A stretch of 15,155 bases of DNA from a virus. The stretch lies in the UHGV virus genome UHGV-0151496; one strand, written 5' to 3'. This document shows, piece by piece, positions 1,006 to 15,155 of the stretch. The position numbers and the translations under genes were made by a program. Below the pieces are notes generated by a model. The model was not told the origin of the DNA and did no database searches. It saw nothing but the letters and a program-made list of their open reading frames with translations. The stretch's first letter is position 1. The number at the start of each line of letters is the position of its first letter.

Positions 1006-1101
1006 TGCGAAGCCCTCCAATGAACCGCTCTACAATTTCTCCAGCTTCTTTCCAGCAATAATCAGACCAGACAAAAAGCAGGTCTAACCAGTTTTCTGGC
1101 C

Positions 1102-1689
1102 TCAGCGGGATAATTTTTGGATTGTTTTGGTTGAAACCCGATCGCCCTCCGAATCGCAGGAGCCATCAAGAGAGAGAGCCGGAGAAATCTGCCCAACCTC
1201 CGGCATCGTTTCATCTGTTGATAACCAGTAAGCGTATTTCTTAAATTTAGGATGTTTCGTAACCTTAAGTAAGGCCCCCTCTGTTACTTGCTTCCCTCTC
1301 GCCTCATAGTTAGTTACCGTTCCATAAGGTAGCCCAACACAATCCGCAAACTCCTGGCGGGTCATCCCTTCAGCTTCACGCATCAAGCGAAATTTTGCCC
1401 CAAGCCCAGATGCCACTTCAGACTCATCATCTACTAACGGAGTAGGCGAAACTTGCCCATTTTCAGCAGCCGAATGCCCAGTCATAAGCCAAAGCGCGTA
1501 TTTCTTGAACCTTTCAACCTGTAAAACTCGCTCAACCAACTCTGCTCTGGCAGGTTGATGCCCGGTTTCATATTTCTGAATAGTATTGAGCGGAATTCCT
1601 GTAATATCAGAGAATTGACGCCTACTTAACTCCTCCGCCTCTCTCATCATCATGAGTCTTTGCGAATAGTCTATTGACACGTTTCTCAT
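1102..1689 (-). CDS. Immunity repressor (C/CI-like) with two tandem XRE-type helix-turn-helix modules
   Basis: Same strand as int and divergent from cox, the P2 position of gene C. ORF track extends to a TTG at 1737; the first ATG is at 1687-1689 with AAGGAG upstream. Two internal repeats: REAEELSRRQFSDITGIPLNTIQKYETG...KYALWLMTG and REAEGMTRQEFADCVGLPYGTVTNYEARG...KYAYWLSTD. Confidence 0.75.
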   Translation of the reverse strand: MRNVSIDYSQRLMMMREAEELSRRQFSDITGIPLNTIQKYETGHQPARAELVERVLQVERFKKYALWLMTGHSAAENGQVSPTPLVDDESEVASGLGAKFRLMREAEGMTRQEFADCVGLPYGTVTNYEARGKQVTEGALLKVTKHPKFKKYAYWLSTDETMPEVGQISPALSLDGSCDSEGDRVSTKTIQKLSR

Positions 1690-1740
1690 ATGAGAAATAT
1701 ACTCCTTTCTAAATTGAGAAATGTTAAAACACCTCAATTG

Positions 1741-1780
1741 GCCTAAGTAAGCCTATATAAGCCATTTTGAGCCATTCGAA
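1741..1780. promoter_or_regulatory. Candidate operator/divergent promoter region: four phased 10-bp direct repeats each starting GCC
   Basis: gcctaagtaa gcctatataa gccattttga gccattcgaa read directly in the C-cox intergenic region; includes a tatataa -10-like element. Direct-repeat operators are known for P2-type C repressors. Confidence 0.5.
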
Positions 1781-1801
1781 CGAATTAGGGAGATTACCAC
1801 A

Positions 1802-2089
1802 ATGAGCGAATCTGAGCTTGGGGGGTTCATTCAGGTAGCACCATATCCACTTGAAGCGGTGCCATATCAACTATTCGCCAAGATGATCGGCCGCAAGGAA
1901 TCCACAGTCAGAACCATGATTGACGCAGCAAAGCTACCGACAATTGACTTTGTGAAACCAGGTTCAGTAAAGACGCGTGCATCAGAAAACTGGGTATATC
2001 TGCCAGCATTTAACGAAGGCATGCGCAAAGCGTTTTTTGAGCAACCGAAAGAACGCCGCGATGCATGGTTGTTGTGGTTGGGGCTTTAG
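1802..2089 (+). CDS. cox: Cox-like excisionase / early-operon repressor (P2 Cox family)
   Basis: 95 aa, divergent from the repressor, GGGAGA 8 nt upstream of the ATG. Motifs PYQLFAKMIG..TVRTMID..KLPTIDF and WVYLPAFN..RRDAWLLWLGL resemble P2 Cox as I recall it. Confidence 0.8.
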   Translation: MSESELGGFIQVAPYPLEAVPYQLFAKMIGRKESTVRTMIDAAKLPTIDFVKPGSVKTRASENWVYLPAFNEGMRKAFFEQPKERRDAWLLWLGL

Positions 2090-2095
2090 TCATAA

Positions 2096-2302
2096 ATGAC
2101 CAACAACATCACCAATATCATTTTGACCCTCGTTCTTTTTGAAGTGGGCGTGGTAGTGATTTGGCTTTTTCGCAAATTAACAGGGCATGAGGAACGCTTT
2201 ATGGCTCTCAATGTTGAATACATCACTGCTTATGCCAGAGGGCTTTTTCCGGCTGCCATTGGGGCAATGATCATGGTGTTTGTTATCTGGTTTATCGGGT
2301 AG
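2096..2302 (+). CDS. Small hydrophobic (probably membrane) protein, unknown function
   Basis: 68 aa, two hydrophobic segments (IILTLVLFEVGVVVIWLF; AAIGAMIMVFVIWFIG), immediately downstream of cox in the same operon. Confidence 0.55.
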   Translation: MTNNITNIILTLVLFEVGVVVIWLFRKLTGHEERFMALNVEYITAYARGLFPAAIGAMIMVFVIWFIG

Positions 2303-2313
2303 AGGTGCAAAAA

Positions 2314-2667
2314 ATGAATAAGCAACAGCGTAATTCTTCACAACAACGTTCCCGCAACGGAACGAAACGCCATGCTAACCGTTTCGTTACCAGCGCATCA
2401 CGCAGCAACATCCGCTACAGCCTGAGTGATACACACGCAACGCCGGATGGTCACGCTGTAAAGCAAATTGCCGAGCACACCTGGTTTATTGAGAAAGCAG
2501 GAATTGTAGTCCACAAATGCCCGCGCAATCCGTTTACCGGAAACCGCCTTTTTGCGCTGAGCAGCGGCGACAATCAGTTCGGACAGGATTTCACATTGTA
2601 CGAAGCACTACGCACGGTTGACCGATTAATTGCAGGCTGTAGTTTTCAGCACCCGTGGAGCTATTGA
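2314..2667 (+). CDS. Hypothetical early protein
   Basis: ORF track start 2305 is GTG; the ATG at 2314 has AGAGGTG 6 nt upstream. Basic, Ser/Arg/Gln-rich N-terminus. No family recognised. Confidence 0.55.
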   Translation: MNKQQRNSSQQRSRNGTKRHANRFVTSASRSNIRYSLSDTHATPDGHAVKQIAEHTWFIEKAGIVVHKCPRNPFTGNRLFALSSGDNQFGQDFTLYEALRTVDRLIAGCSFQHPWSY

Positions 2668-2670
2668 TCA

Positions 2671-2928
2671 ATGGCAGCCTCAACAACAGGCGAAAAAGCA
2701 ACACCGGAGGCGGTCTACCGATGTCTTGCTCATCGAGTGGTCACGCACTGCGCTTTCAAAATGCTTAACGGAGAAAGAAGTCCAGCCAAAGCAAAACGCC
2801 AACTGATTAACGGACTGGAGTCATTAAGAGAGGTTGCCGCAGCCGCAAATGATTATCCACCGTTCTTCATGATTAACGAAATGATTGAGCAGATTAAATC
2901 CGGTAAATCAATCGAGCATCTTCTTTAA
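2671..2928 (+). CDS. Hypothetical early protein
   Basis: 85-aa ORF, ATG 3 nt after the preceding stop, co-directional in the early operon. Confidence 0.5.
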   Translation: MAASTTGEKATPEAVYRCLAHRVVTHCAFKMLNGERSPAKAKRQLINGLESLREVAAAANDYPPFFMINEMIEQIKSGKSIEHLL

Positions 2929-2949
2929 TTATTTTCGGGATAACGCCAG

Positions 2950-3192
2950 ATGGACGAAGAATATAAAAAACTCATCAACAAAGCTCTTGAGCGTTTTTAC
3001 TTTCGCTTAAGCGCATCGGGCGCTCATGCTGAACGCGCAGCCCGCGAGTCATTAAACAGAGCCATCAGGAGTCTGTTCGACACAGCTTTTTACATTGATG
3101 ACCCGGACGCACTCGACGAACTTTCAAAACTCGTCTGCGCCGCAGAAAACGGGGAGCATATCGAACCGTATAAGGTGGGGAATATCGCATGA
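2950..3192 (+). CDS. Hypothetical early protein
   Basis: 80-aa acidic ORF; its TGA overlaps the next start (ATGA at 3189-3192). Confidence 0.5.
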   Translation: MDEEYKKLINKALERFYFRLSASGAHAERAARESLNRAIRSLFDTAFYIDDPDALDELSKLVCAAENGEHIEPYKVGNIA

Positions 3193-3302
3193 GTATATTT
3201 ATATCCTGGCTTGCCCTGGTTATTTCGGTGTTCTGCGCCATTGGCATTGTGCGAATTATCGATTCCTTGAAAAAGATTGAACGCTTTTTCACTGGCGAAT
3301 AA
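3189..3302 (+). CDS. Candidate 37-aa hydrophobic micro-protein (MSIFISWLALVISVFCAIGIVRIIDSLKKIERFFTGE)
   Basis: Absent from the ORF track (below its length cut-off). ATG overlaps the upstream stop as ATGA; one predicted transmembrane helix followed by a short charged tail. My own translation of the sequence. Confidence 0.4.
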   Translation: MSIFISWLALVISVFCAIGIVRIIDSLKKIERFFTGE

Positions 3303-3394
3303 CAGCACGAATAAAACACCACATTAATTCCGAAAACCTGAAAACAATCCACATTCGCGGAGGGTTTCTCATATTTAAACAGCGGAGAGCGTAA

Positions 3395-3769
3395 ATGAGC
3401 AAAAGAACAGAAGACGTTATTTTTAAGCTGGAAAAAATCGCAAAGGCAGAAAGCGAACTAGCAATAGAAGGTGCAAAAGAAGGTCTCATGGGCGTTGCAG
3501 CCCATTCAGCATTGCTGGCAGCAGTCGCAACTGAAGCTGTTGCAATCATTAAGCAACTGGACAGAGATATTAAATTACTGAAAACAGAAAACGCCAGCGA
3601 GGCTGCATTAACGCTCAACGACTGCGTTAATCATCTTGTTCATACCGCCCATTCCACATACCCGGATGCAGTCCTGAAAATCGTCAAGAAAAACACCTGC
3701 ATCGTTGCTCCGGTTGCTCCTGGCCTTCTCGTCGAATTGCCCAAAGAGCAGGTTTTCATCACAAAGTAA
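3395..3769 (+). CDS. Hypothetical early protein
   Basis: 124-aa ORF with GGAGAG 5 nt upstream of the ATG; Ala/Lys/Glu-rich, probably helical. No family recognised. Confidence 0.6.
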   Translation: MSKRTEDVIFKLEKIAKAESELAIEGAKEGLMGVAAHSALLAAVATEAVAIIKQLDRDIKLLKTENASEAALTLNDCVNHLVHTAHSTYPDAVLKIVKKNTCIVAPVAPGLLVELPKEQVFITK

Positions 3770-3783
3770 TCACGGGGTTCGTC

Positions 3784-4065
3784 ATGAGAAAGCAACCGAC
3801 TGTCACCGTATGTGCCGGAGAGAACGGGAGCGCCAGACTGCACATTGACTGCATTCCGCCATCATCGGTTTACAACAGAGCTATCACCGAACTTAAAGCC
3901 TTTATCTGTGGCAAACGTAATTTCTCCGTTATGCGAGCCAGTCATCGCATGAGTATTCGCGTCGGTGAACGCTATCGCCTCCTGAGTGCACGCTCAGATG
4001 GTCTGTCGTGGCAACTCATCACCCATGAAACCTATAACACGAAATGCAGGCAGAAGTGCGCATGA
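3784..4065 (+). CDS. Hypothetical early protein
   Basis: 93-aa ORF; its stop overlaps the next start (ATGA at 4062-4065). Confidence 0.5.
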   Translation: MRKQPTVTVCAGENGSARLHIDCIPPSSVYNRAITELKAFICGKRNFSVMRASHRMSIRVGERYRLLSARSDGLSWQLITHETYNTKCRQKCA

Positions 4066-4400
4066 CACATCCACTGGACAAACTGAAATATTTCAAAGCG
4101 TTCATGGCTCACACAGCCAGAGCGTTTGCAGGGTTTTACGCGTATCCATGCAGAACAGAATGGGATGGCCTTCTGCAACGAATTTTAAAGGAAGGGAGCC
4201 TGGTGGCCATTGACGAGTTCACCGCGAAATTTCAGTTCAACGATAACGAATATGAAATCTGGATTGCTAACCGATGGTACGCATTCGGCCATCTGCGCCG
4301 TCTGAACGGCCTCTTGTCTGACGAAGCATTCCGCCCCTGTTTCAGAACCATGTATCGCCTGCATCAGATGGTTCAGGCATTTCTGGCTGCGGAGGCGTAA
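4062..4400 (+). CDS. Hypothetical early protein
   Basis: ORF track start 4044 is earlier in frame; the ATG at 4062 (MTHPLDKL...) overlaps the upstream stop as ATGA. Aromatic-rich, 112 aa. Confidence 0.55.
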   Translation: MTHPLDKLKYFKAFMAHTARAFAGFYAYPCRTEWDGLLQRILKEGSLVAIDEFTAKFQFNDNEYEIWIANRWYAFGHLRRLNGLLSDEAFRPCFRTMYRLHQMVQAFLAAEA

Positions 4401-4612
4401 TGGCTTTTGAGGTGTACAAGGTTGTCCGTTTCACAGTTGATGGTCGCAACTATGACGTGGATGAGCGCCTGATAGACATGGACAGAACCGCCCCATCACG
4501 CACTGACCCAAACGTCCACTATATCTGGTTTAAGGACGGGGAAACCCATTTTCGCGCCACTGACGTGACGCACGTAAATCTCATCCGGCAAACACGGGAG
4601 AAACAGCAATGA
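4400..4612 (+). CDS. Hypothetical early protein
   Basis: 70-aa ORF; start overlaps the upstream stop (TAATG) and its stop overlaps the next start (ATGA). Confidence 0.5.
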   Translation: MAFEVYKVVRFTVDGRNYDVDERLIDMDRTAPSRTDPNVHYIWFKDGETHFRATDVTHVNLIRQTREKQQ

Positions 4613-4839
4613 CAGCAATCAGAAGCTATCCACGTAAACCAGGCAAGGCACTCGCCACACTGAAAAGTCTTCTTCACTCCGAAGTATGTGATTTTTGCGC
4701 GGGGCTCGGTTCACCAGGTGAGCCAGTCTCACCTGCAGCGATTCAGGCAGAACTCCTGATGCGCCTCGATGCGGTATTTGATTTTTACATTCATATGCCA
4801 CCAGAGACCAGCACAGCATCCGTTGCCGTAAAACGCTGA
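4609..4839 (+). CDS. Hypothetical early protein
   Basis: 76-aa ORF, translationally coupled to the upstream ORF; last ORF before a ~325-nt non-coding gap. Confidence 0.5.
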   Translation: MTAIRSYPRKPGKALATLKSLLHSEVCDFCAGLGSPGEPVSPAAIQAELLMRLDAVFDFYIHMPPETSTASVAVKR

Positions 4840-4962
4840 AACAGGTACACCATGCACACACAAAAAAACCGCTTGCCACAGCGCAATCAGTCAGGTTACA
4901 TTTCCGCTGCATCTCATAAAACGGATGCCGGGTTTCGCAGCCTGCTGATCAACAAAGCGCAC

Positions 4963-4983
4963 AACCGCGTCAGCGGTTTTTTT
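4963..4983 (+). terminator. Intrinsic-terminator-like hairpin with T tract
   Basis: aaccgc-gtca-gcggtt followed by ttttt: 6-bp stem, 4-nt loop, 7 consecutive T (4977-4983) on the + strand. Confidence 0.5.
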
Positions 4984-5039
4984 GTGCGTACCGCATTGCC
5001 GCACATTTTTTCGCATCAGAATTATGGTGGGGCGTACGG

Positions 5040-5069
5040 GGCCGACTTCGGTCGGGCCGGGTTTTCTTT
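5040..5069 (+). terminator. Second terminator-like hairpin (GC-rich stem, UUCG loop) with U-rich tail
   Basis: ggccgac-ttcg-gtcgggcc followed by gggttttcttt. About 7-bp stem with one bulge, then T-rich tract. Confidence 0.45.
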
Positions 5070-5165
5070 GTTGACCGGTACTGCGAACCTCGTACGTCTC
5101 GCCACCCACAGTTTCGCAGCTCTGGATGGTGAGTATTCAAAACTTACCAACAAAGAGGCCACACC

Positions 5166-5396
5166 ATGGCAAACCGCAAACAGCACCGCGCTATCGCGGA
5201 GCGTCGTCACATCCAGACTGAAATCAACCGCAGACTTTTCCGCGCATTCCGCGTCGCTAAAATCATGCACATCAACATGCTGCATGAGCGTAGCTGCGAA
5301 CTTTCAAACCTCTACTCATCCGCTGTTTTCAGCTATCTGGCGGATGATCTGCGCGAGCTTCAGCAGCTCATCCAGCAGCAAAACCAACTCCGTTAA
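5166..5396 (+). CDS. Hypothetical small basic protein
   Basis: 76-aa ORF with AAGAGG 7 nt upstream of the ATG; Arg-rich N-terminus and Gln-rich C-terminus (LQQLIQQQNQLR). First gene after the non-coding gap. Confidence 0.6.
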   Translation: MANRKQHRAIAERRHIQTEINRRLFRAFRVAKIMHINMLHERSCELSNLYSSAVFSYLADDLRELQQLIQQQNQLR

Positions 5397-5468
5397 TTCC
5401 TGTTCCGGGCCTTTCCCGCACCCTGCGGCGGGAGGCCTTCGCACATCTGTAGTAAAGAGAATTGCAGC

Positions 5469-5858
5469 ATGATTGACCGTCACGACTTCGTAAAATGGGT
5501 GCGCACACAGGACACCCGTCTGGCCCCAAAACTTCAGGCAATGTTTGATTTTTATCTCCGTGCCCGTGCCAGCCGGGCACGCACCACAAAACCGGAGAAC
5601 GCAGACACCCTTTATTTCACCGTGGACGACTGTTACCGCGTGGCCTTTACACCACAAGGTCTGGGCCTGTACACCCTGACACCACACGGCGACTCCCTGT
5701 TGGCGTATTACGACTCCCCGGCCTCCGTATTTGCGGCAATGCTGGCGCATCGTACCGCTGGCGGGTGTGCATCGCTGAGTGAATACACCGCTGAATTTAA
5801 CCGCCTTTCCGTCATCTTTTCGCAGGAGTGGCAGAGCGTGACGGGATACCAGCCATGA
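5469..5858 (+). CDS. Hypothetical protein immediately upstream of the replication gene
   Basis: 129-aa ORF; its TGA overlaps the gpA ATG (ATGA at 5855-5858). Confidence 0.55.
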   Translation: MIDRHDFVKWVRTQDTRLAPKLQAMFDFYLRARASRARTTKPENADTLYFTVDDCYRVAFTPQGLGLYTLTPHGDSLLAYYDSPASVFAAMLAHRTAGGCASLSEYTAEFNRLSVIFSQEWQSVTGYQP

Positions 5859-8695
5859 GTGAGTTTGCATGGAGCTGGAATGAACCGCAGCCAGCTATTG
5901 ATCCGGACGACTTCGCGAACTTCAGCCGGTTGCCAAAAACCGGACTGCAACGCGCCATTCGTTACTACCTTGAGGCAGACAAAAAGGCCCAGGAAGAACA
6001 GGAAGCGAAGGGAGAAGCCTTTTTCGCACAATCCGCCATGGGTAAAAAACTCATGGCATCCCTTGAGGAAGCCGGGCAACACAAAAAACTGATAAAAAAC
6101 ATCATCAGTAAGCGCCAGGAAATAAAGCAAGACCCGGTGGCCCGTGCATTTGTCACACTAAAGGCGCTTCCCGTTTATCTGCGAGAACCCCTGAGCCGCC
6201 ACCTCTCGTTCCTGCGCAAGAAGCAGGAAGCCGATCGTCAGAAAGGCAAAAAGAGCTGGCAGGCCGAACGCTACGCGCGCGGAAACCTGCGCAAAATATT
6301 CGAACGTCTGAAGCGCACCGACAGCCGCTGGCTGACACAGGGGTATCGCTCCCTTGCCGGACGCGAACGCCTGGACGATTTGCTTTACCTGCCGCAGCTC
6401 AACAAACACCAGATACAGACGCTGGCCACCATGACGGCGGCGATGTTCAGCAGCACCTTCGAAAAACTCTGCGATGGCTTTGGCGCGACCGATGGTGAGC
6501 TGACCATGGATGTAACGCTGAAGGCGTATCAGATGCTGGCCCGCATGGCGTTACACCTGCACACCATGCCGCCGCATTATGACGCACTGACAACAGACAA
6601 AGACCGGAAGAACGAACCGGAAACGGAGCTGCTGCCAGGCGCAATCCTTCGCCTGACCTGTGCGGAATGGTGGAAACGCAAACTGTGGCTTTTACGTTGC
6701 GAGTGGAGAGAAGAACAACTCCGCGCCGCCTGTCTGGTTTCCAGAAAAACATCGCCCTATCTGAGCCAGGACGCGTTAAGCGAGTTTCGCGCACAACGCG
6801 AGAAAACACGCGATTTCCTGAAAAGTTTCATGCTGGAAAACAAATACGGGTTCACGTTTTATCTCGAGACAGTGTATTACGCGGGAGTAAGTAACCCGGT
6901 TCACCGTAAGGCAGAAATGATGGCCACCATGAAGGGACTGGAACTTCTGGCCGAAGCCCGTGGCGACAGAGCGGTGTTTCTGACTGTCACCTGCCCGTCA
7001 AAATACCACGCAACAACGGAGAACGGTCATCCGAACCCCAAATGGAACGGGGCCACCATGCGCGACTCCAGCGATTACCTGGTTAACACGTTTTTTGCGG
7101 CGGTCCGCAAAAAACTGAACCGCGACGGTCTGCGCTGGTATGGCATCCGCACGGTGGAGCCTCATCATGACGGCACGGTGCACTGGCACATGATGGTTTT
7201 TGCGCATCCTGACGAGATTGAAACCATCGTGTCCCACACCCGCGATATTGCCATTCAGGAAGATCGTCACGAGCTGGGTGATGATATTACCCCACGCTTT
7301 AAGGCGGAGTACGTCGACGGCTCAAAAGGCACACCGACCAGCTACATCGCCACCTACATCGGGAAAAACCTGGACAGCCGTGCCGTGGATGGCATCGACC
7401 CGAAAACGGGCAAGCCACGCGTTGACCACGAAACCGGAAAATCAATGGCCGAGAGCGTGGAACGCGCCATCGGCTGGGCGCGCCTTCACCGTGTCCGCCA
7501 GTTCCAGTTCTTTGGTATCCCCTCCCGTCAGGTGTGGCGTGAACTCCGCCGCCTTGCCAGCCAGATGGCACGCAACCCGGAAGGCCCGCAACGGCTGAAG
7601 GATGACGCAATGGATGCGGTACTCGCTGCCGCTGATGCCGGATGTTTTGCCACCTACATAGAGAAACAGGGCGGCGTACTTGTTCCACGCAAAGACTACC
7701 TGATTCGCACCGCCTACGACCTCGCAGAAGAGCTGAACGATTACGGCGAACAGAGCGCACAGATTTATGGGATCTGGTCACCACTCATCGGGGAATCCTC
7801 CCGTGTGTGCACGCACCCGGATAACTGGAAGCTGGTAAGACGTAAACCGGAAGCGGAAGACAACACCCGCGAAAATGGTTTTGACCTTCAGGGCGGCCTT
7901 GCCGCCCCTTGGACTCGTGGCAATAACTGTCCCCGTGTACAGGAAACGGACAACAACGGGACAGAACAGCCGGAAGAACGGCCAGCACCGTGGCCGCAGC
8001 TTCCTGACGGCGTTGAAGTGAATGAATGGATCCGCTCACTGAAACGGCACGAACGCCGGGCGCTGATGCGTTCGCTGCGTGACAAACAGGCAAAAAACAG
8101 CAGCGATGAAATGCAGAACTGGACACAGAGCCGCAAACAGCCGCGGCCTTTACCTGATAACCACGAGTTACTCGCTAAAGAATGGCGGGAGTCTGCTGAA
8201 TCTCTCGGCCTGCATATCGGTGAACAGCAGATGCAGCACCTGTTACGGGGCGGCAGTCTGTACGTTGACGGCAGCATCATTTCACCGCAGGGATTTGAAA
8301 TTGTACGCAAACCGGATACCCGCCCGGACGGCCTAATCACGCAACTCTGGCAACGCCTGAGCCGTAATCACGGCATAAGCAGCACGGAGATCCGCCATAA
8401 CCCGGTCGCCAGCTATCTGAAACAGCTCGAGGCATCAGACCCTGAAGCCGCCGCACGCCTGGCATCCACACTTCAGCAAGACCAGAACACCATGAAAACA
8501 CCCGTTACCGTGCTTTCTGACATGCTGCGCGCCATCCGCGACGCAGAGCACGCACAGAGAATCAGTGAAACCACTGAACGCGCCCGCCGCAAAGCAGACC
8601 TACTGCGGGGTAGCCTGACCAGTGGAAACAAAAAACAGACAAAAACGGGATTCACAAATCCCGTAAATGAGCAAAAAACGCGCCGCGATATATGA
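5855..8695 (+). CDS. A: Rolling-circle replication initiation endonuclease, P2 gpA family
   Basis: ORF track start 5828 is GTG; the ATG at 5855 overlaps the upstream stop. Contains an HUH-type motif (GTVHWHMMVFAHPDE) and a paired-tyrosine motif (SYIATYIGKNL) typical of P2 A-type Rep proteins. Position matches gene A in the P2 map. Confidence 0.88.
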   Translation: MSEFAWSWNEPQPAIDPDDFANFSRLPKTGLQRAIRYYLEADKKAQEEQEAKGEAFFAQSAMGKKLMASLEEAGQHKKLIKNIISKRQEIKQDPVARAFVTLKALPVYLREPLSRHLSFLRKKQEADRQKGKKSWQAERYARGNLRKIFERLKRTDSRWLTQGYRSLAGRERLDDLLYLPQLNKHQIQTLATMTAAMFSSTFEKLCDGFGATDGELTMDVTLKAYQMLARMALHLHTMPPHYDALTTDKDRKNEPETELLPGAILRLTCAEWWKRKLWLLRCEWREEQLRAACLVSRKTSPYLSQDALSEFRAQREKTRDFLKSFMLENKYGFTFYLETVYYAGVSNPVHRKAEMMATMKGLELLAEARGDRAVFLTVTCPSKYHATTENGHPNPKWNGATMRDSSDYLVNTFFAAVRKKLNRDGLRWYGIRTVEPHHDGTVHWHMMVFAHPDEIETIVSHTRDIAIQEDRHELGDDITPRFKAEYVDGSKGTPTSYIATYIGKNLDSRAVDGIDPKTGKPRVDHETGKSMAESVERAIGWARLHRVRQFQFFGIPSRQVWRELRRLASQMARNPEGPQRLKDDAMDAVLAAADAGCFATYIEKQGGVLVPRKDYLIRTAYDLAEELNDYGEQSAQIYGIWSPLIGESSRVCTHPDNWKLVRRKPEAEDNTRENGFDLQGGLAAPWTRGNNCPRVQETDNNGTEQPEERPAPWPQLPDGVEVNEWIRSLKRHERRALMRSLRDKQAKNSSDEMQNWTQSRKQPRPLPDNHELLAKEWRESAESLGLHIGEQQMQHLLRGGSLYVDGSIISPQGFEIVRKPDTRPDGLITQLWQRLSRNHGISSTEIRHNPVASYLKQLEASDPEAAARLASTLQQDQNTMKTPVTVLSDMLRAIRDAEHAQRISETTERARRKADLLRGSLTSGNKKQTKTGFTNPVNEQKTRRDI
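8646..8663. repeat. 18-bp perfect-arm palindrome cgggattcacaaatcccg (copy 1), inside the 3' end of the gpA ORF
   Basis: Read directly: 7-bp arms CGGGATT/AATCCCG around a 4-nt centre, followed by taaa. Near-identical copy 73 bp downstream. Confidence 0.6.
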
Positions 8696-8718
8696 AGCGC
8701 GCACAAAACAGGCAAAAG

Positions 8719-8736
8719 CGGGATTTCAGAATCCCG
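8719..8736. repeat. 18-bp palindrome cgggatttcagaatcccg (copy 2), upstream of parM; candidate ParR operator/parC-like site
   Basis: Same arms as copy 1, also followed by taaa; lies 36 nt upstream of the parM ATG. Confidence 0.6.
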
Positions 8737-8771
8737 TAAACGATTAATTAATCAACATAAGGAAAAGCGAC

Positions 8772-9731
8772 ATGAAAATTTGTATCGACGACGGCTCCAC
8801 CAACATCAAGCTGGCATGGACTGAGAACGGCGAACGCCGCAACGCCATCAGCCCGAACAGCTTCAAGTCGGAATGGTCTGCGCCGTTCGGCGGCTCGCAG
8901 CCCGCGAACTACATGCTTGATGGCGTGCGCTATGGTTTTGATCCGGTCAGCGATCGCTTTGTCCGGACGACCGACACGCAATACCAGTACAGCGATGTGA
9001 ATGTCATTGCCATTCATCATGCGCTGGTCAAATCAGGTATTACGCCACAGGAAGTGGATGTGGTTGTCACCCTGCCACTGAGCGAGTATTTCGACACAAA
9101 CGCACAGCCGGATATGACCAACATCAACCGCAAAAAAGCGAACGTCATGCGCCCGGTGGAGTACCAGAACGGTGAGGCATTCACTATCCGTAACGTGCGG
9201 GTTATGCCTGAATCCATTCCGGCAGGCTTTAAGGCACTGGCTGACATGAGTCCGTTTGAATCCCTGCTGATTGTGGATTTGGGCGGTACCACGCTGGATG
9301 TGGCAAAGGTTCAGGGGCAACTGGCAGGTATCAGCCAGGTATTTTGCGATCCACACGTAGGCGTTTCACTGATGACCGATGCCGTGCTGTCGGTGATGGC
9401 CACCAACGGTATGCGTACCAGCCACCACATCGCCAGTACCATTATCGAACATCGCCACGATGAAGCCTGGCTGCGCCAGCACATCCACAATGACGCGCAT
9501 TACGCCAGCCTGATGGCGGTTATTCGTGAAAAGGAAGAAACACTGAAACAACGCGTGATCCGCGCACTGGCGGGCTTTTCGGGATACGGTCGGGTGATGA
9601 TTGTCGGTGGAGGGGCGGAGATTGTGGCTCCGGCGGTACATGACGCTTACGGCCTCAACGCAAACATTCACACAACACCGGAGCCACAGTTTGCCCTGGT
9701 TAATGGACTCCATGACATGAACAGGGAGTGA
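8772..9731 (+). CDS. parM: Actin-like plasmid segregation ATPase ParM/StbA
   Basis: N-terminus MKICIDDGSTNIKLAW, SPNSFKSEW, YSDVNVIAIHHAL, VMPESIPAGF, LIVDLGGTTLDV, VMIVGGGAEI and C-terminal ALVNGL closely resemble plasmid R1/R100 ParM (StbA) as I recall it. AAGGAA precedes the ATG. Confidence 0.9.
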   Translation: MKICIDDGSTNIKLAWTENGERRNAISPNSFKSEWSAPFGGSQPANYMLDGVRYGFDPVSDRFVRTTDTQYQYSDVNVIAIHHALVKSGITPQEVDVVVTLPLSEYFDTNAQPDMTNINRKKANVMRPVEYQNGEAFTIRNVRVMPESIPAGFKALADMSPFESLLIVDLGGTTLDVAKVQGQLAGISQVFCDPHVGVSLMTDAVLSVMATNGMRTSHHIASTIIEHRHDEAWLRQHIHNDAHYASLMAVIREKEETLKQRVIRALAGFSGYGRVMIVGGGAEIVAPAVHDAYGLNANIHTTPEPQFALVNGLHDMNRE

Positions 9732-9735
9732 ACCA

Positions 9736-10047
9736 ATGACAACATCAACCAGGCGGATAAGTTTCTATCTGAAGCCAGCCGCAGTCAAGAACGAAGGTGA
9801 AGCATGCACATGGCTGGACAGCCTTACACCAGAAGCCCGCAAAAGCGGCCAACGCGTGGCTTTTCTGGCCGGGCTGGCGCTTCTGAAGACGAATCCGGCA
9901 GAGGCTTACCGGCTGGCTGCATGGGCTGACGATGAGGCGTTATCCGTGACACAAACCAGGACAGAACGCCCCGTGTCACAGCCAGTACCAACCGCACAGA
10001 TAACCAGTCAGATGGCCGGAAATATCCGGGCGCTATTTCCTGAGTAA
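9736..10047 (+). CDS. parR: ParR/StbB-like centromere-binding adaptor
   Basis: 103 aa directly downstream of parM (4-nt gap, GGGAG upstream). N-terminal RRISFYLKP...LDSLTPEARKSGQRVAFLAGLAL resembles the ribbon-helix-helix region of R1 ParR. Confidence 0.7.
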   Translation: MTTSTRRISFYLKPAAVKNEGEACTWLDSLTPEARKSGQRVAFLAGLALLKTNPAEAYRLAAWADDEALSVTQTRTERPVSQPVPTAQITSQMAGNIRALFPE

Positions 10048-10053
10048 GCAGAG

Positions 10054-10074
10054 CCAGGGCGGAAACCGCCCTGG
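10054..10074. terminator. Perfect 9-bp stem / 3-nt loop hairpin after parR (no T tract)
   Basis: ccagggcgg-aaa-ccgccctgg, 7 nt after the parR stop. Marks the boundary between the GC-typical core and the AT-rich island. Confidence 0.4.
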
Positions 10075-10099
10075 ATGTAATCAGTAGAGAGTGTGAACC

Positions 10100-10228
10100 C
10101 ACACCACATCACGCTCCATGAAATTTGCATAATTTAACTATGATTTTTGCAACTCTCCATTCATAATGTTAGTAATAATTAACCAATCTAAACCCATAAG
10201 AGCCACCATTGTTAAATTCAGGTGACGT
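10100..10228 (+). promoter_or_regulatory. AT-rich upstream region of the cargo operon; putative promoter
   Basis: TTGCAA at 10147-10152 and TAAT-rich -10 candidates (cataat 10162-10167, taataa 10173-10178); AGGTGA before the ATG at 10229. Spacing is not canonical, so the exact promoter is unresolved. Confidence 0.25.
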
Positions 10229-11374
10229 ATGAACATTCAACAGCGTATAGCAGAACGCTTGGTTCAGGCCAGAAACGACGCGGGAATGAGTGCAAGCGCC
10301 GTCGCAGATGCGATCGGTGTTGTTCGTCAAACCTACAGTAAGTTTGAGCAGGCGCTAGGCGTCCCAAGCGTTACCCAACTCATCATGCTCTGCAAGATTT
10401 TCGATAAGCCTATCGGGTATTTTTATGAGCAAGATGATGGCGAGTTCCGTTTTGCAATGCGAGCAGATAGTCCGGATTTGTTGGATGCTAAACTTCGCAA
10501 TGAGTTGATTGAAAAGTTAAAAAATATCAATGCAATTGAGGAAGCTGCTGATGCTAATTTGCCAGAAGATCTTCCTAACTCAATGCCTATTTTTACCGCC
10601 AAAGCAGAAGATTTGCGAAGAGTCGAAGATAAGGCTATGGAAGAACGTTTCCGTCTTGGTATAGGAAACGCTACTTGCGTTGGTGACATTGTAGCCATTT
10701 TGGAAGCATCGGATATTCGAGTAATCCCGTTCAATCGCGAAGAAACCGATAAAGGGATGGTATTCGGATTTTCTGCGTTTTCGAACAAATACGGTACCGC
10801 GATTTATGTAAATGTTCACGACAGCATTTCAATAGAACGTCAAATCTTCAGTATTTGCCATGAATATGCTCATCTTATCTTCCACCGTGATGAGTATGAT
10901 GGCCCTGCTAAAAGCTATAAAACTAATGGCAAAGCAATTTCACCGGAAGAAAAAGTTGCTAATCACTTTGCTGCTTGTTTTTTGGTACCAGAAAGTGCAT
11001 TGCGAAAACAATTCGTCATGCAAGGTGGTGGATGGGCGTATGAGGAAACCGTCCTTAGACTAAAAAGCATTTTCAGAGTATCAGCCACTTGCATCATCGA
11101 TCGTCTTAGTAAATGTAATTTAATTAATCAACAAAACACTAGATACCTATGGGCAACCGCCAATCGTAAAGGTTGGAAGAGACACGAGCCAAATCCCATT
11201 AGGGAAGCACTAAATTATAAAGGTCGCCTAACCGTCTTATCGCGTAAAGCATGGGAAGCCGGTTCCGCGTCGGAAACCTTCATATCTGAACTTTTAGAAT
11301 TAGACAGAAAAGCTCTCAGCAATCTTCTGGATGAATGGTACGACGAACAGGAGGCCGGAGAGGATGCCGTTTGA
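10229..11374 (+). CDS. Fused XRE-family HTH + ImmA/IrrE (COG2856/DUF955-type) zinc metallopeptidase
   Basis: N-terminal HTH (SASAVADAIGVVRQTYSKFEQALGVPSVTQL) and central HExxH motif (SICHEYAHLIFH) in the context typical of ImmA/IrrE peptidases. 381 aa, AT-rich codon usage unlike neighbouring phage genes. Confidence 0.8.
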   Translation: MNIQQRIAERLVQARNDAGMSASAVADAIGVVRQTYSKFEQALGVPSVTQLIMLCKIFDKPIGYFYEQDDGEFRFAMRADSPDLLDAKLRNELIEKLKNINAIEEAADANLPEDLPNSMPIFTAKAEDLRRVEDKAMEERFRLGIGNATCVGDIVAILEASDIRVIPFNREETDKGMVFGFSAFSNKYGTAIYVNVHDSISIERQIFSICHEYAHLIFHRDEYDGPAKSYKTNGKAISPEEKVANHFAACFLVPESALRKQFVMQGGGWAYEETVLRLKSIFRVSATCIIDRLSKCNLINQQNTRYLWATANRKGWKRHEPNPIREALNYKGRLTVLSRKAWEAGSASETFISELLELDRKALSNLLDEWYDEQEAGEDAV

Positions 11375-11882
11375 ATGCCCCAGATGTGTTATCGATACGA
11401 ATGTACTGTCTGATTTTTACGAAGGTAAATGCTTAGATCTTATCTGGCAAATTTACCCGGGTGGTGTGTGGATTGACCCCTATGTCTGCGAGGAACTAAA
11501 AGCTAAATACAATCTTGATGTTCAGGAACAGCTTACACGCCTGCAACTTCCATACAATTTCACCAATGATTACGAACCTGAACATTTTATTGAAATGGCT
11601 GAGATAAAAAATCGCAGGAGAGCATTGAAGTATGCGGACATAAGCTGCGTTGTTAACGCGAGAATACATGATGCAACATGTCTTTCGGCGGATAATGCGG
11701 TTTATAAAACGTGTGCGGAACGCGGTGTAAAAGCCGCCCGCCACGGAGGGCTACTCCAAGAGGCTGTGCGCAGGAGACTTATCCACAAACATCAAGCCTT
11801 AATGCATTTCCAATTTTTCCTAGATCGTGGGTTAACGATGAAATCTTCTGTTCGAGAACAGATTCTTGCCAGTTTCGAATGA
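11364..11882 (+). CDS. PIN-domain-like nuclease (VapC-like fold), candidate toxin/effector
   Basis: ATG at 11364 with AGGAGG 9 nt upstream (ORF track's 11331 start lacks an SD). VIDTNVLSDF near the N-terminus (PIN strand-1 Asp), acidic residue in VCEELK, then DISCVVNARIHDATCLSADNAVY resembling the PIN D..IAA.A / T.D motifs. Start lies 10 nt upstream of the peptidase stop. Confidence 0.6.
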   Translation: MPFECPRCVIDTNVLSDFYEGKCLDLIWQIYPGGVWIDPYVCEELKAKYNLDVQEQLTRLQLPYNFTNDYEPEHFIEMAEIKNRRRALKYADISCVVNARIHDATCLSADNAVYKTCAERGVKAARHGGLLQEAVRRRLIHKHQALMHFQFFLDRGLTMKSSVREQILASFE

Positions 11883-11915
11883 ATCCAAATCTCTCTTGCC
11901 ATATTGGGTTATATT

Positions 11916-11941
11916 GAGCCGCAATAGCGGCTCTTTTTTTT
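11916..11941 (+). terminator. Rho-independent terminator of the cargo operon
   Basis: gagccgc-aata-gcggctc followed by 8 T (11934-11941), 34 nt after the PIN stop. Confidence 0.8.
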
Positions 11942-11956
11942 GTTTATTTATAACAA

Positions 11957-11992
11957 GTGCGCAATGCACAATAGTGCGCAAATTTGCACAAT
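11957..11992. repeat. Tandem direct repeat GTGCGCAA(T)n TGCACAAT x2
   Basis: gtgcgcaatgcacaata / gtgcgcaaatttgcacaat read directly. TGCACAA recurs at 12056-12062 beside the palindrome aaaaacgcgttttt (12064-12077). Confidence 0.5.
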
Positions 11993-12313
11993 TTTTTTGA
12001 GCGACTTTTTGCCCTTCTGGCCCGCGTGGCGGCTGGATCCGTCAAGGATCCGTGCATGCACAAAAAAACGCGTTTTTGTTGCGCGCAGGTGCCGGGGGAA
12101 CAGCCCGCAATTTGGGGTCTGAAAGCATCCTCAGAAATCGCCAGAAATGCTGCTGATTGTGCCCCTGACGCGATGTTTTATTGGTTGTGTGGTGAAGTAT
12201 GGGCTGATGCATCACATGCCTGTGATGCACTTTGATGCGACGTGTGCTGACAGGTTATTCAACCTGGTAGATCCCTGAGATGCCTGGTGCGTGACACACC
12301 GGAGCTGGTGAGT

Positions 12314-12337
12314 CGGGGCATAAATTTTTATGCCCCG
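12314..12337. repeat. Inverted repeat cggggcataaa-tt-tttatgccccg just downstream of the portal gene stop
   Basis: 11-bp arms read directly; could be the minus-strand transcription terminator of the P-Q operon and/or part of the packaging (cos) region. Confidence 0.5.
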
Positions 12338-12363
12338 GAGAAGCAGCAGACAAGCGAAGCGCG

Positions 12364-13413
12364 TCAGGATGTGGGCGGGGTATCCAGCAGTGCGTAAGGG
12401 TTAAAGCGGATCACCTCCTCGCCCAGCCAGTCATTAACGTGCTTCATCGCCTCCATCACCGGCATCAGTTCGTTGATCGCAAACACTCTGGCCGCCTTCT
12501 CCACATCACCAAAAGAACCCTGCCCGCTGGGCATTGCGCCCATCAGTTGTGGTGGTACACGGTGAGCGGCCAGCACATCATCACGGGAGGCCGCCTTGAC
12601 GTTCATGAACTCATCCCGGGCGGTGATCTGCTGGAATGGCAGGATTTGCACACCGTCCTTCCCGCCGTTCGGTGCCTGGAGTAGCAGGTTCTTGAATGCC
12701 CCACCGCCTCTTGCGCCCTGCAACGCTCTTTCGAGAGCCTGCATACTTTCGCGATCAACCTGTGCTGCCCCCACGTAAATGATGCAGCCTGCATGTGAAC
12801 CGTTGTCATAGTAGAGTTTGCGGAAGCGATCTGCCGAGTGCGACAGACTGGCAGACAACAGGCCACCGAGATATTCCGGCATTCCGTACATCTCCTGGTT
12901 GATGTCGGGGTTCAGCACATGGCAGACGCGCCCCTGACGGAACTCGTGATCCTGCTCCCCCGTCTGCACAAACCAGTACACATCCGGTTCAACACCACGA
13001 CGGACGTATTTTGCCAGGGCATGGCGCAGTTCCAGTTTTCCGCCCAGCCTGTTGGTGCGCAGTTCAAGAAACGCATTCCCGAAGACAAACCAGTCCAGCG
13101 CAAAGGCGGAGAACGCCTGCCGGGACAACAGCCGGTGCGGAATGAAGCAGCCCAGTATGGCATTCCGCTTGAAGTACAGCGCCGACTGGTGCCACGAGGT
13201 CTGCCGGGATGCCCGCGCCAGTCCGTACCAGTCAACGGGCGTTTCGTAGTATCTGCCGTTACTCAGACAGTATGCGTTATCCAGCAGGTCGAGTGCGTGC
13301 GCATCGTAAGGGCCGTCGAACGAGAAGGCGCTTAACGACGGCTGGCGGCGCAGTGCCTCTGCCAGCGCCACGCCGTCATCGCGGCGCGAATATTTTCGTT
13401 TTTGTTTTTTCAT
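12364..13413 (-). CDS. Q: Phage portal (capsid portal vertex) protein, P2 gpQ-like
   Basis: 349 aa, immediately downstream of and overlapping (ATGA) the terminase ATPase gene on the minus strand; size and position match P2 gene Q. Family assignment by position and general resemblance, not by a search. Confidence 0.8.
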   Translation of the reverse strand: MKKQKRKYSRRDDGVALAEALRRQPSLSAFSFDGPYDAHALDLLDNAYCLSNGRYYETPVDWYGLARASRQTSWHQSALYFKRNAILGCFIPHRLLSRQAFSAFALDWFVFGNAFLELRTNRLGGKLELRHALAKYVRRGVEPDVYWFVQTGEQDHEFRQGRVCHVLNPDINQEMYGMPEYLGGLLSASLSHSADRFRKLYYDNGSHAGCIIYVGAAQVDRESMQALERALQGARGGGAFKNLLLQAPNGGKDGVQILPFQQITARDEFMNVKAASRDDVLAAHRVPPQLMGAMPSGQGSFGDVEKAARVFAINELMPVMEAMKHVNDWLGEEVIRFNPYALLDTPPTS

Positions 13414-15155
13414 CAGAACTCAATCACCCGCATTCCTGTAGCACCGTCCTCCTCACCCAGCGGCTCGTTAATGACGGCAAGCATGGTTGCCCACGCGAGG
13501 TCGCCGTGGTTCACGCCGCGTGTGCGGTCTGTTTCATAAGTTATTGCCCCACCCGCCGTTTTTGCCTTGCGCACAGCGTTGAATGCCCTGACCAGCTCAC
13601 GTTCGCCCCGGTCATACTCCCAGCGCCCCGCACGAATAATCTGCAACATCTTCAGCACAAGCGCGCGTTTGGATGCCAGTGTGAACGTGTACGGCACGGC
13701 GGCAGGCCAGAACCGCCGCACTATCTGGTACACTGCCTCACCGTTACCGCCGGTCACGTCGATACCAATGTGCTGGACGTTGTATTTGTGCGTGAACTGC
13801 TCAATCACACGGGCCTGCTCTTCAAATTCCAGCCCCTGCACCTGTAACGTCTCCACCGTGCGGAATTTGCCGCCCCTGACAGCAGGCGGAACAACAACAG
13901 ACAGCGCCCCGCTGTCGCCGTTACCGCTGCTGCCGTTAGCGTCGTAGCCAATCCACACCGGACGATTACCCACCGGACGTGCTGCGAACGGTTTCCAGTC
14001 ATTCCACTCATCATAGCCGTCCACACCACAGCCCAGCAGGGCATTAAGGTCGAAGGCGGATTCGCCGTCGCTGACAAACTCGCACATGTAGAGATTGCGG
14101 AACTCATCCGGCGAGTTCATGTTGCGGATTTTGTCGATACTGGTGAGTGACCAGCCCAGGTCCACCGCATCCTGAATCGTCACGATTTGTCGCCACGCGC
14201 TGTCGGGGCACAGCCCCCCACTCTTCAGAGCATGATGGGACACATCAATCTCCCGGCGCTCACTGCGTGGTCGCCCGGCATTCCACCGCGCGCCGTTCCA
14301 GAACTGAAACGCCTCGTGCATCTCCGATGACGGCGTGGAAAAGTAGGTCTGCGTCAGGCCATTCAGCGTGGCCATCGCGCCTGCGACCTTGCGCAGCGTG
14401 ATGAAGTTCGACACCCAGAAAAATTCGTCAAAATACAGATTGCCCGTGTATGACTGTGCACTCGCGGCGGATGTCCCCAGAAAATGCAGTTCCGCGCCGT
14501 TAGAAAGCACGATTTTGTCACCGCCTTTCAGCTCGACGTCCACCGCCTGTGCCGCCTTCTGAATCACGCCTTTAAACTGAAAAGCCTGACGGCGCGAGGC
14601 TGACAAAAAAATCTGGTTTCGCTGGTACGGATATTTCACGCGCTCATCCAGCGCCCGCAGCAGTGCCTCCTGCGCAAAATACCAGGTCGCGCCTATCTGT
14701 CGGGATTTCACAATGATGCGAATATCAACACCGGCACGACGGCAGACGTCCAGTGCCTCATACCAGCGTCGCTGATGCTCTGCCAGTTGACCGGTGATGT
14801 GTTCGCGCAGTGCGGCAACCTGCGATTCGGAAAAATGGTTTTTCAGCTTTCGTTTTCGCGGGCTTTTTTCCGCGCCGCCCCTGTTGTCATTCAGTTTTGC
14901 GAGCTGGCGTGTCAGCAGGTCGATTTCCTTAAAATCACCGCCGCTCTTTTCAGCTTTTGAGGTCAGCTGAACCAGTCGCGCATCAATCGACTGCGTGACC
15001 CGCTCCACGGGCGGCGTCTCATCCCATCCGTCGCGCTTTTTCCACGAATAAATCGTGTTCTGACTGATACCCATCAGCCGCGATATTTCAGCGGGCGGAT
15101 AACCCTGCCAGTAAAGCTGTTTTGCCCGCAGCCTGATGAATGCGTCCTGAATCAT
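13413..15155 (-). CDS. P: Terminase large (ATPase) subunit, P2 gpP-like
   Basis: 580 aa. N-terminal HTH-like region (QGYPPAEISRLMGISQNTIYSWKKRDGWDE) typical of gpP-type terminases; Walker-A-like region (IVKSRQIGATWY). Start codon is the last 3 nt of the window, so an upstream start cannot be excluded. Confidence 0.85.
   Translation of the reverse strand: MIQDAFIRLRAKQLYWQGYPPAEISRLMGISQNTIYSWKKRDGWDETPPVERVTQSIDARLVQLTSKAEKSGGDFKEIDLLTRQLAKLNDNRGGAEKSPRKRKLKNHFSESQVAALREHITGQLAEHQRRWYEALDVCRRAGVDIRIIVKSRQIGATWYFAQEALLRALDERVKYPYQRNQIFLSASRRQAFQFKGVIQKAAQAVDVELKGGDKIVLSNGAELHFLGTSAASAQSYTGNLYFDEFFWVSNFITLRKVAGAMATLNGLTQTYFSTPSSEMHEAFQFWNGARWNAGRPRSERREIDVSHHALKSGGLCPDSAWRQIVTIQDAVDLGWSLTSIDKIRNMNSPDEFRNLYMCEFVSDGESAFDLNALLGCGVDGYDEWNDWKPFAARPVGNRPVWIGYDANGSSGNGDSGALSVVVPPAVRGGKFRTVETLQVQGLEFEEQARVIEQFTHKYNVQHIGIDVTGGNGEAVYQIVRRFWPAAVPYTFTLASKRALVLKMLQIIRAGRWEYDRGERELVRAFNAVRKAKTAGGAITYETDRTRGVNHGDLAWATMLAVINEPLGEEDGATGMRVIEF

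Follow-up and report, generated by a model that had tools for sequence, protein, structure and literature searches.

The stretch of DNA considered here is the virus genome UHGV-0151496 of UHGV, 15,155 nucleotides (nt) long and referred to below as the window; by its gene assignments it belongs to an integrated P2-family prophage, of which it spans the early half. Between its StbB-like plasmid-stability gene, the last conserved backbone gene on the left, and a conserved block in front of the portal gene lies an island of cargo containing a cassette of two overlapping genes. Gene 1 encodes a helix-turn-helix (HTH) domain fused to an M78 peptidase, gene 2 a PIN nuclease. The features of the island and its edges are as follows:

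10048-11964, plus strand: cargo island, AT-rich and absent from all relatives in the phage collection
10054-10074, plus strand: G+C-rich hairpin with a perfect 9-bp stem and a 3-nt loop (-19.6 kcal/mol, z = -5.1), no U tract
10147-10175, plus strand: candidate sigma-70 promoter (TTGCAA, 17-nt spacer, extended -10 TGtTAGTAA)
10168-10185, plus strand: candidate operator, palindrome-like TGTTA-N8-TAAC(A), overlapping the candidate -10
10209-10223, plus strand: second TGTTAA half-site, then the Shine-Dalgarno sequence AGGTGA
10229-11374, plus strand: gene 1, 381 amino acids (aa), 100% identical to WP_001603071
10859-10873, plus strand: HEYAH zinc-binding/catalytic motif of gene 1 (H211, E212, H215)
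11364-11882, plus strand: gene 2, 172 aa, PIN domain with a VapC-like core and a DUF3368-type C-terminal helical extension
11916-11941, plus strand: intrinsic terminator of the cassette (GAGCCGC-AATA-GCGGCTC, then T8)
11965-12108, no strand assigned: conserved backbone block, 91-95% identical to six related phages

A preliminary description, made from the letters of the window, had pointed to an AT-rich island at about 10080-11940, and the composition bears this out: the GC content is 0.424 at 10074-11961 against 0.557 on the left (5828-10073) and 0.572 on the right (11962-15155). In a sliding window it falls from 0.55-0.57 to 0.40-0.48 at about 10050-12000 and then rises to 0.54-0.60. For segments of its length, GC is lowest in the window at the island (minimum 0.421, start at 10121), and all non-overlapping segments of the same length have a GC content of at least 0.453. 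Codon usage, which that description had proposed to compare with the flanks along with GC, is sharply different as well. GC at third codon positions is 0.38 and 0.40 in the two cargo genes against 0.63-0.69 in gpA, ParM, portal and terminase, codons ending in A or T make up 61% in the cargo and 35% in the backbone, and relative synonymous codon usage correlates at -0.085 between cargo and backbone (against +0.73 between gpA and portal plus terminase). Since the cassette has a low GC content in every enterobacterial host examined (0.43-0.49 against surroundings of 0.52-0.56; 7-10 points lower), this composition is a lineage trait of the enterobacterial cassette clade and cannot by itself date the acquisition. 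A distant copy in Lamprobacter is at the GC content of its host, 0.63.

The boundaries are sharp. At the StbB stop codon (10047) the homology shared with all relatives breaks off, with BLAST breakpoints at 10047-10073: six related phages are 92-95% identical up to this point and none aligns across the island. Homology is back at 11962/11965-12108 and then from 12298. In the junction sequences each relative diverges straight after the StbB stop, and homology restarts exactly at a triple TGCACAA repeat. The preliminary description had let a hairpin and a terminator delimit the island. Both structures are real, but the hairpin at 10054-10074 probably does not belong to the cargo: because it follows the StbB stop and has a close analogue at the same position in P88 and PhiR44_2, both with other cargo, we assign it to the backbone, probably as the 3' hairpin of the parM-stbB operon. 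The terminator on the right has a 7-bp stem (6 G-C pairs; -14.1 kcal/mol, z = -3.9), and several other cargos in this slot likewise end in a terminator of their own just before the conserved block.

Alignment against related P2-like prophages, proposed earlier as a check, shows different cargo in the slot, the homology breaking at 10047/10048 and 11962-11965. None of the eight relatives examined (six phages and two prophages) has the island; they share the sharp breakpoints, and the cargo between these was counted as different in all eight. In its place we find a ClpX-zinc-finger-like set (P88 and PhiR44_2), a membrane protein (Shae_phiSM), an 807-nt hypothetical gene (Chuche), a 270-nt open reading frame (ORF; phage 520873) or a DUF4760 gene with a hypothetical gene (Entero_P88). 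Among 5426 complete E. coli genomes, only 16 have the late-module type of the window (at 95% identity or more); two of these 16, strains 135 and SCU-172, have the same partition genes with different cargo: one carries an ead/Ea22-like pseudogene, the other a DUF3800 gene.

The cassette itself is present in 32 of the 5426 genomes, always on the chromosome and at an identity of at least 98%, and about 2-4% of the prophages bearing ParM/StbB carry it; the remainder have unrelated cargo there. Both junctions are as in the window in 28 of the 32 genomes. In the other four the cassette resides in a different P2-like phage, accompanied by a 78-nt remnant of StbB, a footprint of transfer by recombination within stbB. 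In this arrangement, seen for instance in E. coli CFSAN029787 (4609-8201), an IS600 insertion and the StbB remnant precede the cassette and an ogr/Delta-like gene follows it. Compared with the prophage of strain C7, the cassette is 99.4% identical, gpA 95.6%, ParM/StbB 93% and portal/terminase 74%. Because a cassette of 99.4% identity stands beside late genes of 74%, and the own backbone type occurs with other cargo, the histories of cassette and backbone conflict, as exchange of the cassette via conserved flanks predicts. Neither the cassette DNA nor the PIN protein has a match among 72,556 plasmids and 50,697 phage records. The earlier proposal of a recently acquired, self-contained cassette is thus supported by the C7 identities, by the combination of an operator-like motif, two genes and an own terminator, and by the presence in 32 of 5426 genomes. 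Both checks that it had named, on composition with codon usage and on the content of the slot in relatives, also speak for it.

Gene 1 consists of an Xre-type HTH domain (aa 7-65), a linker, an M78/ImmA-IrrE zinc peptidase domain (about aa 150-300) and a helical C-terminal region (aa 300-380). Both domains score above their Pfam gathering thresholds (HTH_3, 3e-8; Peptidase_M78, 1.5e-11), and the protein matches PHROG 2439 as well as 14 RmrA models of PADLOC (best E = 2.8e-35, aa 4-321). Membership of the NCBIfam 'spr1629 family repressor/antitoxin' was ruled out (86 bits against a cutoff of 335). The AF2 model (mean pLDDT 85) contains an HTH bundle, a short strand at 74-78, an alpha/beta peptidase domain and the helical C-terminal region. 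With Foldseek the peptidase domain matches CapP, IrrE and PprI (7t5t, 3dti, 8slm) and the HTH matches SinR, P22 c2 and C.BclI. A phmmer search against the PDB gave no match at 1e-5; the profile of gene 1 finds 9vzy_A there at E = 7e-17. An alignment with 27 homologues, the most distant at 25% identity, shows no variation at H211, E212 or E241, and H215 is kept in at least 90%. E241 is likely the third zinc ligand, and judged by its residues the protein holds a complete HEXXH+E zincin site and an apparently active peptidase. The linker strand FRFAMRAD (aa 73-80) is conserved too, with R78 invariant in the 27 homologues, and is a candidate cis-cleavage or pseudosubstrate site. By analogy with RosmerTA, gene 1 would be an RmrA-like antitoxin/regulator.

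Gene 2 passes the Pfam PIN model (E = 3e-5, 24.9 bits against a cutoff of 23.6), and its AF2 model is a confident PIN fold (pLDDT 90.9). The top Foldseek matches are PIN/VapC structures with probability 1.00 (VapC4, VapC, HARP), and the best structural matches comprise archaeal and mycobacterial VapC toxins and PIN-type RNase P; PDB sequences gave no match to the PIN family. The acidic residues D11, E43/E44, D92 and D110 are invariant in the homologue alignment, and the protein is presumed to be the toxin/effector. A direct Pfam match to DUF3368 was not reproduced, though homologues bear a precomputed PF11848 tag. Distant relatives of gene 2 pass the DUF3368 gathering score (the short C-terminal extension typical of COG2405 PIN proteins) and match PDC-S70 at 1e-6 to 3e-16; the link to DUF3368/COG2405 is made because such intermediate sequences connect. 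The start at 11364 is indicated by GGAGG 9 nt upstream, by an MPF N-terminus kept in homologues and by the identical RefSeq start, on which grounds the start of the maximal ORF at 11331 (183 aa) was rejected. The profile of the PIN family also matches a predicted protein of 3106 aa in 18 separate stretches, which is either an unusual multi-PIN repeat protein or an artefact of assembly or gene calling.

The coding span of 10229-11882 given in the preliminary description is correct and holds both genes, the start of gene 2 overlapping the end of gene 1 by 11 nt (ATGCCGTTTGA). At 11362-11374 the C-terminal D-A-[VIF] of gene 1 and the initial M-P-F of the PIN protein share these nucleotides, and because both frames use the same 11 nt, their apparent conservation is partly mutually imposed. 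Three minus-strand ORFs (10423-10788, 10580-10819 and 11496-11744) lie inside the conserved coding genes and were discarded as spurious. Upstream of gene 1 the default promoter scan gave no promoter on the plus strand. The TGTTA-N8-TAAC(A) motif, the second TGTTAA and the Shine-Dalgarno sequence are common to six cassettes that are only 65-76% identical overall (invariant columns of the alignment), and the motif is a plausible candidate for an autoregulatory operator.

The pair of HTH-M78 and PIN genes is kept in 10 of 11 distinct loci examined, with the genes overlapping or abutting, and persists at PIN identities down to 55% and antitoxin identities down to 31%. These loci are found in prophages, on plain chromosomes and beside restriction-modification genes. 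The pair resides on the chromosome without a prophage in Rahnella, in a degraded P2-like remnant in Gibbsiella, between pfkA/fieF and cpxP in Enterobacter, in the gpA-to-portal slot of another P2-like prophage, in various contexts in metagenomes, and beside an MmeI-type enzyme and a helicase in Lamprobacter (40% antitoxin identity). A 40%-identical HTH-M78 gene lies inside a type I restriction-modification operon (ENA ERZ28615138 scaffold_6395, 930-9140) in the order hsdM, hsdS, HTH-M78, Uma2-family nuclease and hsdR; no PIN gene was called in this operon, which may represent a replacement of the partner. The only HTH-M78 relative in the phage collection, at 25% identity, is encoded by Clostridium phage phiCT9441A (1670-3631). 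It follows a DUF5986 gene just upstream of the terminase genes, thus with a different partner and again near the packaging module.

Comparison with described systems places the cassette among known kinds. An HTH-COG2856 fusion followed by a COG2405 PIN gene has been predicted to form a three-component toxin-antitoxin (TA) system (Makarova 2009, PMC2701414; Matelska 2017, PMC5499597), and in these computational predictions the Xre-COG2856-PIN architecture (with COG2405/DUF3368 or DUF4411 PIN-like partners) is abundant in phages and prophages. The cassette shares the HTH-DUF955 fusion gene (COG2856) followed by a co-directional small PIN-like gene; it differs in that gene 2 is too diverged for a direct DUF3368 match, with only Pfam PIN passing its cutoff. 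With RosmerTA (RmrT/RmrA) it has in common a two-gene operon, an antitoxin made of an Xre-HTH and an ImmA/IrrE-type zinc peptidase (as reflected in the 14 RmrA models) and carriage on phages and mobile elements. The RosmerTA antitoxin node has a predicted association with PIN-like domains (Ernits et al. 2023), and protection against phages is known for RosmerTA systems that carry other toxins (Millman et al. 2022; Ernits et al. 2023). Here, however, the PIN partner falls outside the RmrT models, and the RmrT toxins characterised so far either have no assigned function or depolarise the membrane; moreover, the antitoxin-like gene comes first in the cassette, while the DUF5986 partner in phiCT9441A is upstream.

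The likeness to VapBC lies in the PIN/VapC fold with its four conserved acidic residues, the upstream overlapping gene for a DNA-binding protein and the operator-like palindrome at the promoter. An HTH-peptidase antitoxin of 381 aa instead of a small VapB of the ribbon-helix-helix, AbrB or Phd type, which wraps its C-terminus around the toxin, and an extra C-terminal helical extension of about 50 aa in gene 2, set the cassette apart. CapH/CapP, ImmR/ImmA and DdrO/IrrE share with gene 1 the peptidase fold and HEXXH+E, and the HTH is of the Xre class of their substrates; in contrast to these systems HTH and protease form one polypeptide here, and the presumed output is a co-transcribed nuclease instead of a separate regulon or operon. 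PD-lambda-2 (Vassallo 2022) is an E. coli defence system that likewise combines an Xre-HTH-ImmA/IrrE peptidase fusion with a toxin-like RNase partner. It has three genes (HigB-like, Xre-peptidase and a P4-antitoxin-related protein) and its fusion is toxic, whereas the cassette has two genes and a PIN partner. For PDC-S70, one PIN system reduced the plating of T4, T5 and T7 by 100- to 1000-fold in E. coli (bioRxiv 10.1101/2024.09.26.614923).

The location is also a known one. The interval between gpA and gpQ beside cos (the cohesive-end site) is the main defence hotspot of P2, where P2 itself carries old and tin (PMC9122126, PMC9519451, PMC13586616). The slot of the window corresponds to this hotspot #1, as it lies between gene A and the portal gene Q and shows sharp breakpoints and rapid turnover among close relatives; its content is unlike old/tin and the validated systems (Rousset 2022, Vassallo 2022). 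WP_001603071 is listed in Table S5A of Rousset et al. as 'StbA + Peptidase_M78/HTH + hypothetical + Plasmid_stab_B', with the PIN partner left as 'hypothetical', and is not among the systems reported as tested (PMC9122126).

Taken together, the cassette is probably a mobile two-gene cargo of toxin-antitoxin type (a 'moron') that acts as a protease-gated abortive-infection defence in the cos-adjacent P2 hotspot, although we hold this reading with reserve. Its composition, boundaries, mobility, domain content, intact catalytic sites, conserved gene pairing and hotspot location were established directly. Given the analogies of gene 1 with the RosmerTA antitoxin and with signal-activated proteases (ImmA/ImmR, IrrE/DdrO, CapP/CapH), a protease-gated TA model is therefore best supported. 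We infer the toxicity and its neutralisation, as well as the trigger, the RNA that is cut and the effect on phages, and the course of events might be as follows. In the lysogen, the HTH of gene 1 would repress its own promoter at the TGTTA-N8-TAACA operator, and the gene 1 protein would hold in check the PIN nuclease, the translation of which is coupled to that of gene 1. Infection by another phage, or another stress signal, would activate the peptidase domain, as in ImmA, IrrE and CapP, which would then cleave the HTH/linker or the neutralising part of the gene 1 protein, either in cis or between subunits. The freed nuclease might attack RNA of the cell, of the phage or of both, with tRNA or rRNA the most likely targets by comparison with VapC toxins, so that translation would halt and the infection would be aborted, to the protection of the lysogen population and the resident prophage.

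A more far-reaching version, which we regard as possible though doubtful, is that HTH-M78 with a COG2405-type PIN constitutes a distinct, ancient anti-phage system: a RosmerTA branch with a PIN effector, missed by PADLOC as a complete system, in which a single polypeptide binds the operator, cleaves itself on a signal and neutralises the toxin. If this were true, the cassette would offer a compact model, native to E. coli, for infection sensing by M78 proteases.

Several observations weigh against a protease-gated defence cassette. The Xre-peptidase fusion of PD-lambda-2 is itself toxic, so the assignment of toxin and antitoxin could be wrong (PMC9519451). The candidate promoter at 10147-10175, an inferred site, is a weak consensus match obtained in a relaxed scan only. 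Gene 2 matches none of the RmrT models of PADLOC, even at E <= 10, and its matches to the PDC-S70 models are weak (E = 1.8e-4 with 19.7 bits, and 6e-4). Finally, the PIN family is very small: of 1.84 billion representatives, 66 match at E <= 1e-3 and 4 at 1e-30. It is absent from sequenced phages (50,697 records) and plasmids (72,556), and consequently gives little comparative leverage on PIN function.

Other explanations are conceivable for the same locus. The pair might act mainly as an addiction module that uses post-segregational killing, alongside ParM/StbB, to stabilise the prophage or its extrachromosomal form, and not as a defence against phages. Classical VapBC modules stabilise plasmids. 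The cassette is placed directly downstream of a plasmid-type partition pair, in phages of a P2-like kind for which Rousset et al. speculate about maintenance as plasmids (PMC9122126). Nonetheless, we consider addiction unlikely, given the low share of ParM/StbB prophages with the cassette (about 2-4%, the others having unrelated cargo), the chromosomal location of 1453 of 1455 ParM/StbB backbone copies, the occurrence of the pair away from partition genes (on plain chromosomes and beside restriction-modification genes) and the lack of any relative in 72,556 plasmids. It might also be argued that the roles are reversed as in PD-lambda-2, the HTH-peptidase being the growth-inhibiting effector, for instance as a protease acting on a host or phage protein or as a repressor of genes, and the PIN protein a modulator or nucleic-acid-binding sensor. 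Overexpression of the PD-lambda-2 Xre-peptidase was toxic and its HigB-like partner rescued (PMC9519451), and the peptidase site of gene 1 is conserved as strongly as the PIN site. This seems quite unlikely to us, since all four catalytic acidic residues of the PIN domain are invariant, which argues for a working nuclease, since RmrA is the antitoxin in RosmerTA (an rmrA deletion was unobtainable and the antitoxin role confirmed), and since the arrangement with the DNA-binding gene first, the nuclease second and translational coupling is that of a classical type II TA system.

A regulatory switch of the prophage, with the HTH-M78 protein as a stress regulator of induction or late genes in the manner of ImmR/ImmA or CapH/CapP and the PIN gene as a regulated passenger, is improbable to a higher degree. 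The M78 relatives ImmA, IrrE and CapP do cleave HTH repressors upon DNA damage, and many phages have ImmA-like genes beside the repressor (matches to the PHROG metallo-protease and regulator). The lysogeny module of the window (integrase, CI-like repressor and Cox), however, is located at 1-2089, 8 kb away, and instead of a separate repressor and protease within that module there is one fused protein; most relatives of the phage are without the cassette, and the pair is conserved outside prophages. Practically no weight is left for the idea that the island was never acquired and that its low GC content results from a functional or mutational bias in ancestral phage genes. Regions 1500-1950 and 3150-3600 are fairly AT-rich as well (GC about 0.40-0.42), but the island is absent from all eight relatives with their shared sharp breakpoints, the cassette occurs in only 32 of about 1300 genomes with the backbone, and the phylogenies of cassette and backbone conflict, so that the comparative data refute this explanation.

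With regard to its wider meaning, the cassette is an uncharacterised example of a kind already described, at a site already described, and does not represent a new class of element; its overall importance is modest. It does provide a clean case of P2-family prophages swapping short defence/TA cassettes at the cos-adjacent hotspot, where phages with late genes differing by 26% share one cassette and a single backbone type has different cargos. It is also a specific, cloneable E. coli cassette of 1.9 kb, and the models in PADLOC overlook its toxin half. A PIN effector with a predicted RNase activity that is easily assayed would make a convenient system for studying how antitoxins of the RmrA type, with HTH and peptidase, perceive an infection and let go of the toxin.

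The backbone around the island comprises the following genes:

1-1020, minus strand: integrase
1102-1737, minus strand: CI-like HTH repressor
1802-2089, plus strand: Cox
5828-8695, plus strand: gpA replication endonuclease
8772-9731, plus strand: ParM-like (ParM/StbA-like) protein, 319 aa
9736-10047, plus strand: StbB-like plasmid-stability gene, 103 aa (Pfam Plasmid_stab_B, E = 3e-24)
12364-13413, minus strand: portal
13413-15155, minus strand: large terminase

The relatives in the phage collection are P88-like phages (genus Xuanwuvirus, Peduoviridae). A plasmid-type segregation pair, ParM and StbB (8772-10047), thus stands inside a P2-family prophage between gpA and the cargo slot, as additional backbone genes in the interval from gpA to portal; 1307 of the 5426 complete E. 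coli genomes contain it. Portal and large terminase (12364-15155) are about 74% identical to P88-like phages, whereas gpA, ParM and StbB reach 93-95%, from which it follows that the prophage is a mosaic. Its exact combination of modules is absent from the set of 5426 genomes.

To the right of the island, the block at 11965-12108 is non-coding and kept in all P88-like relatives. It starts from three TGCACAA repeats in 10-nt phase followed by T7, and at about 12088-12106 it includes GGTGCCGGGGGAACAGC, a candidate counterpart of the P2 cos sequence. Together with 12298-12363 the block is probably the cos/packaging region bound by terminase, with the cos position deduced from this resemblance. A strong hairpin is present at 12313-12338 (-20.7 kcal/mol). 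An Rfam scan of 9700-12400 (E <= 1) found no structured RNA, the sole match being a chance internal ribosome entry site.

Elsewhere in the window, the early operon includes a 93-aa ORF (3784-4065) with a ParE-like toxin domain (Pfam PF24732, E = 1.5e-10); its neighbours at 3395-3769 and 4044-4400 gave no Pfam match. This may be a second toxin-antitoxin-like pair of the prophage. Further AT-rich stretches with a GC content of 0.40-0.44 are found at 1500-1950 and 2700-3600. The former is the intergenic control region of repressor and cox; the latter, which could be a further accessory insertion, covers small ORFs without a known function, such as 2950-3192 and 3395-3769.

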